11,867 bases of DNA, from the IMG/VR virus record IMGVR_UViG_2740892230_000035; one strand, written 5' to 3'. The translations under genes and the position numbers were made by a program. Positions 5,644-10,614 of the stretch are shown piece after piece (within the stretch, counting starts at the first letter, position 1; the number at the start of each line of letters is the position of its first letter). This stretch comes from a virus (Duplodnaviria > Heunggongvirae > Uroviricota > Caudoviricetes). The notes under the pieces are model-generated. The model was not told where the DNA came from. It did not search any database and saw only the letters and a program-made list of their open reading frames with translations.

Positions 5644-5796
5644 TCAGCCCTCCCATATCTCGTTATCGTTGGCCACATCGCGAGCTTCTTTGCTGACGAA
5701 AGCCCACTTAATGCCTTCCTGTAAGGTGCGGAACTTCCAGCTCATGAATCCGCATGCAGTAACGCAGTACCAACCGTTGATGATTTTCCACTGCAT
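5644..5796 (-). CDS. Small hypothetical protein (50 aa), first ORF of the leftward early operon; below the supplied ORF-track length cutoff
   Basis: ATG at 5796..5794 with GAGG 9 nt upstream. Product MQWKIINGWYCVTACGFMSWKFRTLQEGIKWAFVSKEARDVANDNEIWEG. TGA stop sits 2 nt before the next ATG. Confidence 0.4.
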   Translation of the reverse strand: MQWKIINGWYCVTACGFMSWKFRTLQEGIKWAFVSKEARDVANDNEIWEG

Positions 5797-5815: not shown

Positions 5816-5892
5816 TTACCGTTTAGGTAATGATTATGCGTATCTGGTTTGATGTCAATAGATATGAGTTAAAAAAATTACCTGTAAGGTAA
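5816..5892 (-). promoter_or_regulatory. Left operator/promoter region (OL/pL analogue): two 15-bp dyads flanking a candidate leftward promoter
   Basis: TTACCGTTTAGGTAA (5816-5830) and TTACCTGTAAGGTAA (5878-5892). On the minus strand a consensus TTGACA (-35; complement of 5854-5859) lies between them, with a CATAAT-like -10 at roughly 15-bp spacing. Confidence 0.55.
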
Positions 5893-5902
5893 TTGTGCGG
5901 GC

Positions 5903-5929
5903 AATAAAAAAGCCGCCATGAGGCGGCTT
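5903..5929 (-). terminator. Rho-independent terminator downstream of the repressor gene
   Basis: Minus-strand hairpin AAGCCGCC-TCAT-GGCGGCTT followed by TTTTTTATT; 21 nt after the repressor stop codon. Confidence 0.65.
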
Positions 5930-5949: not shown

Positions 5950-6534
5950 TTATTGTTTGCTTTTTTCGTTCTGGCTGATGACAAATTCAATGTAACTTTC
6001 GATCTTTGCCTTCTCTGTTTCAGGTAACAATGCGTAGCGCGAGCGGTCATAGTTGATAGTTGCAGGGTCATGCGGGTGAATCAGTAGTTCATATCCGTGA
6101 CGCCCGAATGCTGATGCAACATTCTCCAGGGTGGAAATGGAAACGCTGACCTCATTGTTTAACAGGCGGCTAATTGTCACCTGGGCGACGCCGGATGCGC
6201 GGTGAAGTTTTCCCTGTGTTGAAAGGTCGCGGCTTTCGCTCATCCAGCGTTCCAGGTTGTGAGCCGCCAGCTGACCAATGTCGCTTGGTCCGACAGGCTG
6301 AACCCCCTCCTGAGAAAGCGAGCGATCGATATCAAGCCAGTTACGGGGTTTATTGGCGGCAGCTTCAATTTTTCGCGCAACCTGGTCGCCGATAACCTTC
6401 TTGCCAAGAGCCCAGCGGTTTACCAGATTTGCCTGAGTTCCAAGTTTTTCTGCCATCCGCGTCTGAACACCATTGAATTCACGGTCGATCAAGTCGTTGA
6501 GATTTTGCCTGCGGACGTCCTGGATACTTTTCAT
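5950..6534 (-). CDS. Prophage repressor (CI-like) with two HTH-like segments and no recognisable S24 autocleavage domain
   Basis: 194 aa. N-terminal HTH-like segment (QTRMAEKLGTQANLVNRWALGKK) and a second (LHRASGVAQVTISRLLNNE). Divergent from a Cro-like gene across an operator cluster. No obvious RBS; possibly leaderless or weakly initiated. Confidence 0.8.
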   Translation of the reverse strand: MKSIQDVRRQNLNDLIDREFNGVQTRMAEKLGTQANLVNRWALGKKVIGDQVARKIEAAANKPRNWLDIDRSLSQEGVQPVGPSDIGQLAAHNLERWMSESRDLSTQGKLHRASGVAQVTISRLLNNEVSVSISTLENVASAFGRHGYELLIHPHDPATINYDRSRYALLPETEKAKIESYIEFVISQNEKSKQ

Positions 6535-6589: not shown

Positions 6590-6652
6590 TTACCCAACAG
6601 GTAAATGCACCCCATAGGTAACTATCCTTGATTTTTGTTACCTTATGGGTGA
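6590..6652. promoter_or_regulatory. Right operator region (OR analogue) with three 15-bp dyad sites and divergent promoters
   Basis: TTACCCAACAGGTAA (6590-6604), GCACCCCATAGGTAA (6607-6621), TTACCTTATGGGTGA (6638-6652). Candidate rightward promoter: -35 TTGTTA (6635-6640), 17-bp spacer, -10 TATTAT (6658-6663), overlapped by the third site. Confidence 0.6.
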
Positions 6653-6688: not shown

Positions 6689-6919
6689 ATGAGCGATAAC
6701 GGACATTTCGATTTCAAAAAGCACTGGCTTGCACTTACTCCGGATGAGCGTGAAGCCTTCGCACAGGAAGCCGGAACGACGAGTCACTATATCCAGACTC
6801 ACTTAACAGGTAAGCGCAAAATGCCAGGTAAAGTATTGATGAATGGGCTTTTTAAAGCCTGTAAAACAAGACAATGGCTGCGCTCAAAAGCAGAACTGGC
6901 ATACTTCTTCTACTCATGA
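6689..6919 (+). CDS. Cro-like small HTH DNA-binding regulator
   Basis: 76-aa ORF divergent from the repressor. HTH-like segment EAFAQEAGTTSHYIQTHLTGKRK. Followed by a terminator. Confidence 0.7.
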   Translation: MSDNGHFDFKKHWLALTPDEREAFAQEAGTTSHYIQTHLTGKRKMPGKVLMNGLFKACKTRQWLRSKAELAYFFYS

Positions 6920-6940: not shown

Positions 6941-6965
6941 AGACCGCCATCCGGCGGTCTTTTCA
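6941..6965 (+). terminator. Rho-independent terminator after the cro-like gene (tR1 analogue)
   Basis: Hairpin GACCGCC-ATCC-GGCGGTC followed by TTTT. Confidence 0.6.
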
Positions 6966-6974
6966 TATCTATTC

Positions 6975-6989
6975 GCACCTTAAAGGTAA
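6975..6989. promoter_or_regulatory. Operator-like dyad GCACCTTAAAGGTAA between the terminator and the replication genes
   Basis: Motif-family member; shares ACCTTAAAGGTA with the site upstream of int. A TTGATC -35-like hexamer lies at 7007-7012. Confidence 0.4.
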
Positions 6990-7067
6990 TAAAAAACCAA
7001 ATCTGGTTGATCAAATTTTCCAATTGTGCAAAATAGCCAATATCAATAACAAAAAGGGGCGGAAAAA

Positions 7068-7280
7068 TTGAAGATAGTAACCAGAATGGAGGCCGCAAAA
7101 GCCGGGTTAAATCGCTATTTCACAGGAAAGCGGTGCCGTCACGGCCATCTCTCTGAAAGGTATGTTCTGAACGGAACATGTGTTGAATGTGCAATGAATA
7201 GCGCCAACCGCCATCGTAATGAATTTGCTTGTGCACTAAAGAGTGCAAGAGGGGAAACCTATGGCAAGCAGCTGGATTAA
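7068..7280 (+). CDS. Small putative zinc-binding protein (C-x-H-x-H ... C-x2-C) in the position lambda cII occupies
   Basis: TTG start at 7068 with AGGGG 8 nt upstream (in-frame ATG alternative at 7086). Product contains GKRCRHGHLSERYVLNGTCVEC. Overlaps the next gene start by 20 nt. Confidence 0.5.
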   Translation: MKIVTRMEAAKAGLNRYFTGKRCRHGHLSERYVLNGTCVECAMNSANRHRNEFACALKSARGETYGKQLD

Positions 7281-8085
7281 GGTTGAAGTTATCACTCCTG
7301 ATAAACCTGAAATTTTTCAGATAGCAGAAATTCTGGGTATTGATCCAGATGCTGTTCTTGGAAAGCTGGTTCGTATATGGGCATGGGCTGACCAGCAAAC
7401 AATAGACGGTAACGCTGGCAGCGTTACAAAAGGAGTACTTGATAGACTCGCTTTTATTACAGGATTTGCTGACGCCCTCATTAGCGTCGGATGGCTTGCT
7501 TATCATGACGGCAAACTAATTCTTCCAAACTTTGAGCGACACAATGGAGAATCATCGAAAAAACGTGCACTTACGAATAGAAGAGTGGCAGAGCATCGAA
7601 AACGAGTAACGCAAAAAGTAACGCCAACAGCGTTACAAAAGGAGTTACCAGAGGAAGAGGAAGATATATATAAAACCCCACACATAGCACACGCGCGCGA
7701 GAGTGATCCGACCAGTGAAGCGAACGGTACGCCGTTGCAGGTGGCAGAACCTGCATTTCTGGATGGCCTGAGTGAACCTATTGGGAAATTTCCGATGACC
7801 GATGGCTGGCATCCATCGCCGGATTTTCGACGGCGTGCTGCGCTGTGGGGAACGGCCCTGCCGGAACCGGAATTTACACCTGCTGAACTTGCTGCATTCC
7901 GGGATTACTGGATGGCTGAGGGCAAAGTGTTCACGCAGGTTCAGTGGGAACAAAAATTCGCCAGGCACGTAAATCATATCAGGGGAAAATCAAAAAACGT
8001 CGGGAAAAGCGATGAGCTTGACTGGAATAACACTGACTGGATAGAAGGGGTGTGGGATGAAATCAACTCCAGAACTTCTCAATGA
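7261..8085 (+). CDS. Phage replication initiation protein / replisome organizer (O analogue), probably with a DnaT-like C-terminal domain
   Basis: ATG at 7261 with AGAGGGG RBS. Sits immediately upstream of, and overlapping, the P-like gene. Contains an internal iteron cluster and an acidic linker (EEEED). Family assignment is from recall. Confidence 0.75.
   Translation: MASSWIKVEVITPDKPEIFQIAEILGIDPDAVLGKLVRIWAWADQQTIDGNAGSVTKGVLDRLAFITGFADALISVGWLAYHDGKLILPNFERHNGESSKKRALTNRRVAEHRKRVTQKVTPTALQKELPEEEEDIYKTPHIAHARESDPTSEANGTPLQVAEPAFLDGLSEPIGKFPMTDGWHPSPDFRRRAALWGTALPEPEFTPAELAAFRDYWMAEGKVFTQVQWEQKFARHVNHIRGKSKNVGKSDELDWNNTDWIEGVWDEINSRTSQ
7406..7680. repeat. Candidate replication origin inside the organizer gene: iteron-like repeats plus an AT-rich tract
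   Basis: Perfect 19-bp palindrome GTAACGCTGGCAGCGTTAC (7409-7427). 18-bp direct repeat CAGCGTTACAAAAGGAGT at 7419-7436 and 7628-7645, in different reading frames. Further GTAACGC copies at 7606-7612 and 7618-7624 and GCGTTAC at 7630-7636. AT-rich GAAGATATATATAAAA at 7661-7676. Confidence 0.5.
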
Positions 8086-8833
8086 GTACGATCGCTTACG
8101 TGAGCATGGTGTTGCTGTGCATGAAGAGCGGCGTGACAGCAATGGCAAAAAGGAGCAGGTCGCTAGAATTTTCAATGAACTATTTGTCCAGTTACAGGCT
8201 GCATTTCCTGCAAGCGTTTCGACCATAAGGGAGCAGAACAAACTTAATGAATTCCGTAAGCAATGGATGCTTGCGTTTCTGGAGAATGGGATCACTACAA
8301 TGGAACAGGTTAACGCTGGTATGCGCCACGCCCGCGCCAGTGAATCTCCGTTCTGGCCGTCGCCTGGGCAATTTATCAAGTGGTGCAAAGACAGCAAGAT
8401 GGTTCTTGGTGTCACCATTGACGATGTGATGGCGGAGTTTCACCGGTACAGCAAGGAAAAAAGTTTATATCCTGGCGGTCCCGAAAGATTCCCGTGGCGG
8501 CATCCGGTTATGTACTGGGTTGTATGTGATACCCGCCGCGCAATGTATCAGCGCCAGCTTAGCGAGATTGAGGTTGAGAAACACGCGCGCAGGTTGCTCG
8601 ATGATTGGGCGAAAAAGGTGGCTTCCGGACAGCAGATACCCGATCCGGTGATCAGCATACAGGCAAAGCCAGAACCCATGAGTACACCTCCGGACACAGG
8701 GAGAGACGTTTACCATCCACCAGGGCGAAGTTTCGGGTGCATGCCTAACGCCGCCACCCTGGGGGGAATAACACCGGCGCAGTGGCTGATGGAGGAATAC
8801 AGGCGGGGAAAGGCGGCAGGATTTATCAAGTAA
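8057..8833 (+). CDS. P: Lambda P-like replication protein (helicase loader)
   Basis: Central region (AFPASVSTIREQNKLNEFRKQWMLAFLENGITTMEQVNAGMRHARASESPFWPSPGQFIKWC) closely parallels lambda P as I recall it. ATG at 8057 with GAAGGGG RBS; overlaps the upstream gene by 29 nt. Confidence 0.85.
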   Translation: MKSTPELLNEYDRLREHGVAVHEERRDSNGKKEQVARIFNELFVQLQAAFPASVSTIREQNKLNEFRKQWMLAFLENGITTMEQVNAGMRHARASESPFWPSPGQFIKWCKDSKMVLGVTIDDVMAEFHRYSKEKSLYPGGPERFPWRHPVMYWVVCDTRRAMYQRQLSEIEVEKHARRLLDDWAKKVASGQQIPDPVISIQAKPEPMSTPPDTGRDVYHPPGRSFGCMPNAATLGGITPAQWLMEEYRRGKAAGFIK

Positions 8834-8837
8834 TACC

Positions 8838-8858
8838 AGCGCGATAGCGCATTTTTTT
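8838..8858 (+). terminator. Possible weak intrinsic terminator after the P-like gene
   Basis: Short GC stem GCGC-GATA-GCGC followed by a run of seven T. The stem is only 4 bp. Confidence 0.35.
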
Positions 8859-8870
8859 ACGCCTATATAA

Positions 8871-8947
8871 TTACCTGATGGGTAACAAAATATTCTTATA
8901 TCTATTGATTTTGTGCCTTATGTGGTTTTTAATTACCTTAGAGGTAA
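8871..8947 (+). promoter_or_regulatory. Internal operator-flanked promoter upstream of the DUF1064-like gene
   Basis: TTACCTGATGGGTAA (8871-8885) and TTACCTTAGAGGTAA (8933-8947) bracket -35 TTGATT (8905-8910), a 17-bp spacer, and -10 TTTAAT (8928-8933). The second dyad overlaps the -10 and the RBS of the downstream gene. Confidence 0.55.
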
Positions 8948-8950
8948 ATC

Positions 8951-9295
8951 ATGAGAAAACAGATACAGGCTCTTGGTCGACTCAAAACAGGCCAGATGAA
9001 CAAAACAGAATCTGCGTATTGCCAGTACCTTGAGCAGCGTAAACGTGCAGGGGAAGTCGCCTGGTATCGGTTCGAGGGTATCAAGCTGCGGCTGGCTGAC
9101 AACACGTTCTATACGCCCGATTTTGCTGTGATGCTCGCCACCGGCGAGATGGAACTGCACGAAGTGAAAGGTTTCTGGACCGACGACGCCAGGGTGAAAA
9201 CCAAAGTCGCCGCAGATCAGTATCCGTTCCGAATCATCGGGGTAACGGTTAAGCCAAAGAAAGCAGGTGGTGGCTGGAACATCGAAGAGTTCTGA
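8951..9295 (+). CDS. Phage protein, DUF1064-like (assignment from recall)
   Basis: 114-aa ORF with GAGGT RBS 6 nt upstream. Contains ...YTPDFAVM...ELHEVKG..., a pattern I associate with DUF1064. Confidence 0.6.
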   Translation: MRKQIQALGRLKTGQMNKTESAYCQYLEQRKRAGEVAWYRFEGIKLRLADNTFYTPDFAVMLATGEMELHEVKGFWTDDARVKTKVAADQYPFRIIGVTVKPKKAGGGWNIEEF

Positions 9296-9335
9296 ATCGA
9301 CGATCTTTTTAGTTATCAATGTAATCAATAAGTTA

Positions 9336-9356: not shown

Positions 9357-9963
9357 ATGGACGGTAATATCAAAGGGTTAGTTTCCGCCGGGCATGAGAT
9401 GGCTTCGGAACTGAAAGCTGAATGTGGTGCCGTTGATATGCGCAGCGTGGCAAAGCTGATCAGCGATTTGGCAACGCAACTGGAAGTGCAACTGGCGCGT
9501 GCTAATGCGCTGGCCGAAGACCAGCAGAAAGCGATTGAGTCAATTAAGCAGGCTGATGCGGCTGTTAAGTTGGCACACGAGAAGTTTTCGGCTCTGGCGG
9601 CGGAGAATGCGGGGCTGAATAAATTTATCGCACAGAGTTGCTACGTGTTTGATGGCGAGCAGGATGAGCTATCTGATGCGTATATCTGCGCAACAGATGG
9701 AGGGATGCCGCAAATTCCAGCCACCGATGCTTTTCTGGCTGAAATTCGTGCGGAGGCTCGCAACGAGGGGATTAACTATACCGCAAGCCGTCTTGCTGCT
9801 GCTTNNNNNNNNNNCACCAGCCACCGATGCTTTCCTGGCTGAAGTCCGGGCGCAGGGTGTGGAGATGTTCTCAGAAAAATTCGGAGGTGGCACTCCGCTA
9901 TCCAATATGGTCAAAGAGGTTGCTGCTGATTTTGCGGCGAAGCTTCGCAAAGGAGGTGAGTAG
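9357..9963 (+). CDS. ead/Ea22-like family protein with coiled-coil N-terminus; interrupted by the N-run at 9805-9814 (apparent frame shift across the gap)
   Basis: Two ORF-track pieces (9357-9842 and 9649-9963) share the repeat PATDAFLAEIRAE / PATDAFLAEVRAQ on either side of the gap. Ends ...AAKLRKGGE. Confidence 0.65.
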
Positions 9964-10173
9964 TGCGTGTGGCATGTATCGGCTTGTTNNNNNNNNNNCC
10001 ACGGATTTATCAATAAGTCTTTACGTGAAGTTTTCGACGTTACGCGCATGATTCTGTCAGCAAAAGAAGAGTTAGCTAATGAATCGCATCCGATTGATGG
10101 CCTGTCCGGTGAATATGCAGAGAAATCCCTTGAAGAATGGGCGGAACGGCTTCGCAAAGGAGGCAACCAGTGA
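9963..10173 (+). CDS. Small Ea22-region ORF (about 68 aa) interrupted by the N-run at 9989-9998; start uncertain
   Basis: GTG at 9963 preceded by AGGAGG; ends ...WAERLRKGGNQ, echoing the upstream gene end. Frame across the gap cannot be verified. Confidence 0.35.
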
Positions 10174-10577: not shown

Positions 10578-10614
10578 GATGAACGNNNNNNNNNNAACGC
10601 AGGAGAACAAAACG

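Follow-up and report, generated by a model that had tools for sequence, protein, structure and literature searches.

Positions 8839-8950 of the window (the whole stretch of viral DNA analysed, 11,867 nucleotides) look like an insulated promoter cassette of an epsilon15-like prophage, gated by the immunity repressor Rep. We put the probability of this reading at about two in three, and infer both Rep binding and promoter activity from the sequence. A weak intrinsic terminator at the upstream end of the cassette would presumably end the replication-gene transcript, and a sigma-70-type promoter with a TTGATT -35 and a weak -10 would restart transcription into the block that runs from a DUF1064 gene to a late regulator. 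In the lysogen, Rep bound to both flanking TTACC-N5-GGTAA operators would shut this promoter; all three promoters, PL, PR and the internal one, would open together once Rep is inactivated. The rightward early region would be cut by terminators into units, each terminator being followed by Rep-type dyads.

Prophage identity and gene content

Between positions 5700 and 9400 the window is 100% identical to Escherichia phage TL-2011b and ~97% identical to phages phiV10, ZX5 and HEMP4; it is an epsilon15-like (TL-2011b-type) podovirus prophage (Uetakevirus) and not a lambda relative. Positions 1-645 are core E. coli chromosome (the end of pdeF), present in 5424 of 5426 genomes and 100% identical in strain 55989, so that the window is the integrase-side end of the prophage. 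The TL-2011b record has a 98%-identical copy of these 645 positions near its own right end (42953-43591), and therefore includes host flank. The interval 8700-9100 was found in 530 of the 5426 complete E. coli genomes (~10%). The window is also interrupted by four runs, each of exactly 10 N: the first is at the host/prophage junction (651-660) and the other three are in accessory genes (9805-9814, 9989-9998 and 10586-10595). They break several ORFs downstream of the cassette.

Table 1. Coordinates of the features discussed, in window positions.
Feature	Position	Strand	Details
Integrase gene	851-2098
PL cassette: TTGACA-17-AATCAT (5858 to 5830) between dyads 5878-5892 (distal) and 5816-5830 (proximal)	5816-5892	-	Promoter scan 10/12; perfect dyads
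Terminator after rep, ahead of the PL cassette	5910-5929	-	8-bp stem with 6 GC pairs, plus T-run; -17.4 kcal/mol
Immunity repressor gene rep (SPC32H/epsilon15 type)	5950-6534	-	194-aa product
OR region, three dyads between rep and the cro-like gene	6590-6652	.	6590 perfect; 6607, 2 mismatches; 6638, 1 mismatch
cro-like gene	6689-6919
Terminator after the cro-like gene, with imperfect dyad GCACCTTAAAGGTAA (6975-6989)	6941-6989	+	Terminator 6941-6960; -15.0 kcal/mol
DnaT-domain initiator gene	7243-8085
Replication protein P-like gene	8057-8833	+	Pfam Phage_lambda_P PF06992, 1.7e-55; phrog_109 P-like helicase loader
Terminator-like element, GCGC-GATA-GCGC + A + T7	8839-8858	+	Stem G8839-C8842 with G8847-C8850, loop GATA, T7 8852-8858
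Distal putative operator, dyad 1, TTACCTGATGGGTAA	8871-8885	.	Perfect TTACC-N5-GGTAA
-35-like hexamer TTGATT (4/6), within ATATCTATTGA common to PL	8905-8910	+	Same register to both dyads as TTGACA of PL
-10-like hexamer TTTAAT (5/6, T at -11)	8928-8933	+	17 bp from the -35; register as for AATCAT in PL
Proximal putative operator, dyad 2, TTACCTTAGAGGTAA	8933-8947	.	Perfect dyad, 62 bp from dyad 1
DUF1064/resolvase-like nuclease gene, first gene of the downstream unit	8951-9295	+	PF06356, 2.3e-07; phrog_190 Holliday junction resolvase, 2e-42

The leftward early operon carries RecT/exonuclease genes. Alongside the cro-like gene, the initiator and the P-like loader, the prophage has a gene for a small Cys/His protein, and the P-like gene is the final gene in the upstream (replication) transcription unit. 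The downstream block consists of the DUF1064 gene and accessory genes, up to a phrog_536 regulator gene at the right window edge. The intact DUF1064 ORF has 114 codons, with its ATG directly 3' of dyad 2, and is annotated so in phiV10, ZX5 and BUCT554; the TL-2011b RefSeq record annotates just a 54-codon 3' fragment of it (8488-8652). Within the initiator gene are two 28-nt direct repeats (7409-7436 and 7618-7645; 89% identical, 209 bp apart), each holding the palindrome GTAACGC-N5-GCGTTAC; these repeats are candidate origin iterons.

Operator-like dyads

Five perfect copies of TTACC-N5-GGTAA occur in the window, against 0.00 expected from 200 shuffles; allowing up to two mismatches, the count is 16 against 3.3 in shuffles. 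Two of the perfect copies are dyads 1 and 2, two flank PL (5816 and 5878), and the fifth (6590) lies in the rep/cro intergenic region. Dyads 1 and 2 are therefore of the same family as the immunity operators, which supports the prediction that Rep binds them. Dyad 1 would lie upstream of the -35, and dyad 2 would overlie the tail of the -10 together with the start point and SD: dyad 2 shares T8933 with the -10 hexamer and has both the SD GAGG (8941-8944) and the predicted start inside it, with the ATG at 8951. From 8947 to the window end, the dyad search and the terminator scan found no further dyads and no plus-strand terminators; the cassette would therefore serve the whole block from the DUF1064 gene to the regulator.

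The integrase start lies ~40 bp downstream of a one-mismatch dyad, TTACCTTAAAGGTAT (794-808). This dyad is kept in epsilon15 (L003, 883) and also in prophages of Raoultella/E. coli (L093, L094), so the integrase, too, may be Rep-controlled.

Paralogy with the PL cassette and the promoter-like element

By its anatomy, the cassette at 8839-8947 is a paralogue of the PL cassette. The two have in common the order of their elements (a terminator hairpin with T-run, a short variable stretch, the distal dyad, an A/T run, ATATCTATTGA, a 17-bp spacer and the -10) and a dyad start-to-start distance of 62 bp. In both, the proximal dyad begins with the last T of the -10, and the -35 is in identical register. 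It is mainly this identity of geometry with PL, a good promoter, that leads us to read the interval as a promoter, and not the hexamers as such. The hexamer pair is at chance level, the window having 20 sites that score at least 9/12 compared with 27.9 +/- 5 in shuffles. An A at -11 is near-essential in the sigma-70 -10 element. The promoter scan left the element out because TTTAAT has no A at position 2, and no register of the E. coli version combines A at -11 with T at -7 in its -10. In relatives the -10 region reads TTAAAT/TAAATT or TATAAA, the Salmonella, Enterobacter and Klebsiella versions being nearer consensus. Transcription starting ~7 nt after the -10, as predicted, would put the mRNA 5' end ~1 nt before the SD, which is an unusually short leader.

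The first-pass annotation had placed here a T7 tract with a short hairpin after the P-like gene, then a promoter (TTGATT, 17 bp, TTTAAT) bracketed by two perfect-family dyads, the second of which was said to overlap both the -10 and the RBS of the next gene. The hairpin and tract, the hexamers, the bracketing dyads and the overlap are all present in the DNA. The promoter call stands in part: the hexamers and a PL-like arrangement are there, while activity is a prediction from architecture and conservation, the -10 departs from the canonical form (T at -11) and the SD all but abuts the predicted start. Other choices of -10 and -35 in the interval, and a minus-strand promoter, were judged by eye, and none was conserved across genera.

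The same weaknesses give some standing to an alternative in which the dyads are Rep sites with no working promoter between them. They would then be roadblocks or auxiliary operators that stop replication-operon read-through in the lysogen, and after induction the downstream genes would depend entirely on transcription that passes the weak 4-bp terminator. A -10 without A at -11, hexamers at chance level, a start that leaves almost no leader before the SD and a weak terminator would all be expected under this alternative, as would the dyads before terS (see below), which follow a terminator with no obvious promoter between and suggest that roadblock-type use of dyads may exist in the epsilon15-like family. 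We nevertheless judge it unlikely, on the pattern of conservation. The -35 block ATATCTATTGA is common to PL in the same register and is kept in at least 90% of 97 distinct cassettes, as is CTATTGA; diversity at the -35 is ~0 among 65 distinct E. coli versions. The -10 region, for its part, is invariant in those 65 versions and is nearer consensus in relatives (TAAATT or TATAAA), and a Serratia variant of the cassette also puts its dyads over promoter-like hexamers. A spacer motif, TRTGG (8921-8925), is likewise found in at least 90% of the 97 versions; it is absent from the PL cassette and does not fit an extended -10.

Terminator-operator boundaries

The hairpin at 8839-8850 has four GC pairs and an RNA fold of -7.4 kcal/mol (z = -3.0), and the other two terminators, after rep and after the cro-like gene, fold more strongly (Table 1). 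It falls below the five-pair threshold of the terminator scan. Because the stem has only four pairs, read-through from upstream may be considerable. Nucleotide diversity in the hairpin and T-tract is ~0 among the 65 distinct E. coli versions; across genera the stem is constant and the loop varies, with no compensatory change seen. The phiV10 record labels the hairpin a putative rho-independent terminator and annotates nothing else of the cassette. In a Serratia relative, a different 6-bp hairpin with a T-run occupies the equivalent position. An Rfam scan of 8500-9300 gave one sub-threshold chance match only.

Boundaries made of a terminator and operators are the norm in the epsilon15-like family: they occur after the cro-like gene, after P and before terS. 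At the first of these (6941-7035), which is conserved in phiV10, Tyrion, epsilon15 and prophage loci, the dyad is followed by TTGATC (7007-7012) and, 16-17 bp further, by CAAAAT/AAAATA; the replication genes may have a promoter of their own here. The boundary before terS lies outside the window and consists of the phrog_536 regulator gene, then a terminator, then one or two Rep-type dyads just before terS. It is seen in TL-2011b (L001, 11548-11622), phiV10, epsilon15 and Serratia, with loci L007 (12-44), L008 (87-119) and L091 (reverse strand, 15245) among the instances. In Serratia, the centre of the pre-terS dyad is the terS SD.

Conservation and variable positions

A 62-bp dyad pair stands directly before the first post-replication gene in TL-2011b, phiV10, epsilon15, SPN1S, Tyrion, BUCT554, two Klebsiella phages and Raoultella/E. 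coli prophages. In all, the cassette is kept in about ten named phages, and its 97 distinct versions precede at least three different first genes. Its neighbours are swapped while it stays: the upstream gene encodes P or a DnaT-type protein, and the downstream gene encodes DUF1064, a RuvC-type resolvase or another product, with the RuvC-type resolvase holding the place of DUF1064 behind the same cassette in epsilon15 and Tyrion. Among viral contigs, at least 120 stretches have the 62-bp pair; most of those listed come from contigs of ~40 kb, and in many a second pair lies ~3 kb from the first. In a Serratia prophage whose Rep is 54% identical, the same boundary has two adjacent dyads that overlap TTGCAA-17-AATGAT, so that function appears to be conserved there despite the altered layout.

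A diversity footprint was taken from 65 distinct E. coli versions, obtained by a BLAST extraction that was blind to the dyads. Diversity at all 20 arm positions was 0-0.009, and at four consecutive positions of the dyad-1 centre it was 0.49-0.66, with peaks of 0.58-0.66. The arms are also invariant across genera. Invariant arms around a variable centre are what is classically seen where half-sites are contacted and the centre is left free. Dyad 1 has 27 distinct centres, and the dyad-2 centre is limited to SD-compatible variants. It is vanishingly improbable that the dyads and hexamers are a functionless chance resemblance. The hexamer statistic is all that speaks for chance, and the idea is already refuted by the dyad statistics (five perfect copies where 0.00 are expected), by the invariant arms with variable centres in the 65 versions and by conservation across genera at exactly 62-bp spacing.

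Among near-identical prophages, the positions of high diversity (0.4-0.66) are 8862-8870, 8877-8880, 8886, 8899-8900, 8939 and 8942 and, in the PL cassette, which shows the same hypervariable pattern, 5883-5886 and 5895-5900. Third codon positions of the flanking genes have diversities of 0.04-0.065, which is ~tenfold below those of the dyad centres and outside positions. Between two loci that agree at all of 535 other positions, 9 of 17 hypervariable sites are different. Flank and centre variants of PL appear, as judged by eye, to travel together as haplotypes. A rule matching the dyad-1 centre to the centre of the distal PL dyad within a genome was considered and rejected, the two being equal in only 2 of 59 cases.

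The repressor

The Rep encoded in the window matches the crystallised Repressor of Salmonella phage SPC32H (PDB 5d50; E = 6.6e-42, residues 1-190), with a well conserved N-terminal domain. The Rep of SPN1S, which has the same cassette, is essentially that of SPC32H (1.2e-130). SPC32H Rep is described as a tetramer, which is also its DNA-binding form, and an antirepressor is said to remove it (PMC9638917). A second source gives its order of domains as DNA-binding (N-terminal), dimerisation and looping-type tetramerisation, with domain pairs ~100 A apart and octamer contacts in crystals (PMC9986798). Overexpression of the phiV10/ZX5 Rep orthologue blocked lytic growth and lowered lysis-gene transcripts by >99%, in a paper that defines no operators (PMC9782041). 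Rep homologues down to 54% identity (Serratia, Raoultella, E. coli) all go with the same half-site, TTACC-N5-GGTAA, and Klebsiella phages with a diverged immunity region likewise use it.

A spacing of 62 bp corresponds to about 5.9 helical turns, which places the dyads on nearly the same face of the DNA and suits bridging by one tetramer. One Rep tetramer would probably clamp both dyads and bend the promoter between them, because the tetramer has two separated pairs of DNA-binding domains and the operators are always 62 bp apart.

The same tetramerisation domain and octamer contacts (PMC9986798) could instead be put to use over longer distances. The dyad pair would then be mainly a distant looping partner for OL/OR that stabilises repression of PL and PR via higher-order Rep complexes, as OL-OR looping does in lambda, rather than a site of local control. 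The dyad clusters, 0.7 kb and 2.3 kb apart, are compatible with such contacts. As the chief role of the pair we find this decidedly improbable, since it accounts neither for the promoter geometry that the cassette has in common with PL and the constant 62-bp spacing, nor for the place directly between a terminator and a start codon, nor for the way the cassette stays while its flanking genes are exchanged. Looping of this kind and the roadblock function could both coexist with local gating of a promoter by Rep, which we continue to prefer.

A broader model can be proposed from the duplication and the diversity footprint together, although we regard it as speculative and rather doubtful. A portable terminator-operator-promoter-operator unit would have been duplicated to PL and to the site after the replication genes, and a single Rep tetramer would close a microloop of ~6 turns (62 bp) on it. 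Positions that Rep does not contact (the dyad centres, and 6-8 bp outside the distal dyad) would change ~tenfold faster than neighbouring synonymous sites, possibly through hypermutation linked to repressor occupancy or through diversifying selection on operator strength, and not by neutral drift.

Antitermination and the late regulator

No arginine-rich, N-like ORF was found at the head of either early operon, where the first ORFs have at most three R per 12 residues, and Pfam and phrog searches of the early-operon ORFs gave no match to an antiterminator family. The boxA motif CGCTCTTTA with up to one mismatch had three matches against 2.6 expected, all of them on the minus strand inside rightward operons. 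Neither Pfam nor PDB sequence searches gave a match for the phrog_536 late regulator, whose gene precedes terS and is for the most part beyond the window edge; this regulator could be an antiterminator.

These searches bear out the statement in the first-pass annotation that no N-like antiterminator is apparent at either early operon head. Its further claim, that the internal promoter replaces an antitermination architecture, fares less well: an N-like protein and boxA were indeed not found, and this negative evidence agrees with direct repression in the place of antitermination, but the claim wrongly assumed a lambda-like ancestry. Its suggestion that the downstream genes are controlled directly by the immunity repressor is, on the operator-family dyads, the PL arrangement and the conservation of the whole cassette across the phage family, still the best reading.

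Discussion

If the preferred reading of a Rep-gated promoter is right, epsilon15-like prophages would do without a lambda-style antitermination cascade for their delayed-early genes, and their early region would be a set of terminator-insulated units, each gated directly by one tetrameric repressor. It would explain the silencing of the block with the presumed late regulator, and it predicts that removal of Rep opens all units at once. The cassette would also offer a compact, natural and repressible unit whose fixed operator spacing lends itself to tests of looping by SPC32H-type repressors. The gain is mainly a better annotation and a clear experimental target.

The repressor-gated design is typical of the epsilon15-like family rather than new, and is partly annotated in epsilon15 itself. 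In the record of Salmonella phage epsilon15 (GenBank NC_004775), ATTACCAAAAGGGTAAT (35906-35922), between the replication and resolvase genes, is a protein_bind feature labelled 'repressor' and is the homologue of dyad 1; three repressor sites at OL and one before terS are also marked. These sites are predictions, in a phage of the same family, with the same half-sites and in the same position. The record does not have the second dyad, the promoter-like hexamers, the 62-bp rule or the PL paralogy; the second dyad is probably unmarked because its 17-mer is imperfect. The window differs from epsilon15 in being of the E. coli TL-2011b type: its cassette follows a P-like gene and precedes DUF1064. 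As for the SPC32H Rep/Ant switch (PDB 5d50, 5d4z), in which a tetrameric repressor is removed by an antirepressor, the Rep of the window is a homologue of that repressor. The secondary sources consulted on SPC32H Rep/Ant make no mention of an internal promoter after the replication genes.

The N/nut system of lambda (tR1 and the nin terminators) addresses the same problem, namely delayed-early genes that lie behind terminators downstream of O/P-type replication genes. Unlike those of lambda, the terminators of this prophage each precede repressor dyads and, at 8839-8950, a promoter-like element. In phage P1 (C1) and mycobacteriophage L5 (gp71), one immunity repressor acts directly at many dispersed operators, and the L5 stoperators are orientation-dependent elongation blocks. 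The prophage would resemble these systems in that one repressor serves several transcription units and not just a divergent PL/PR pair. It differs from them in having a repressor of an unrelated family, and a candidate promoter bracketed by two dyads at fixed spacing.
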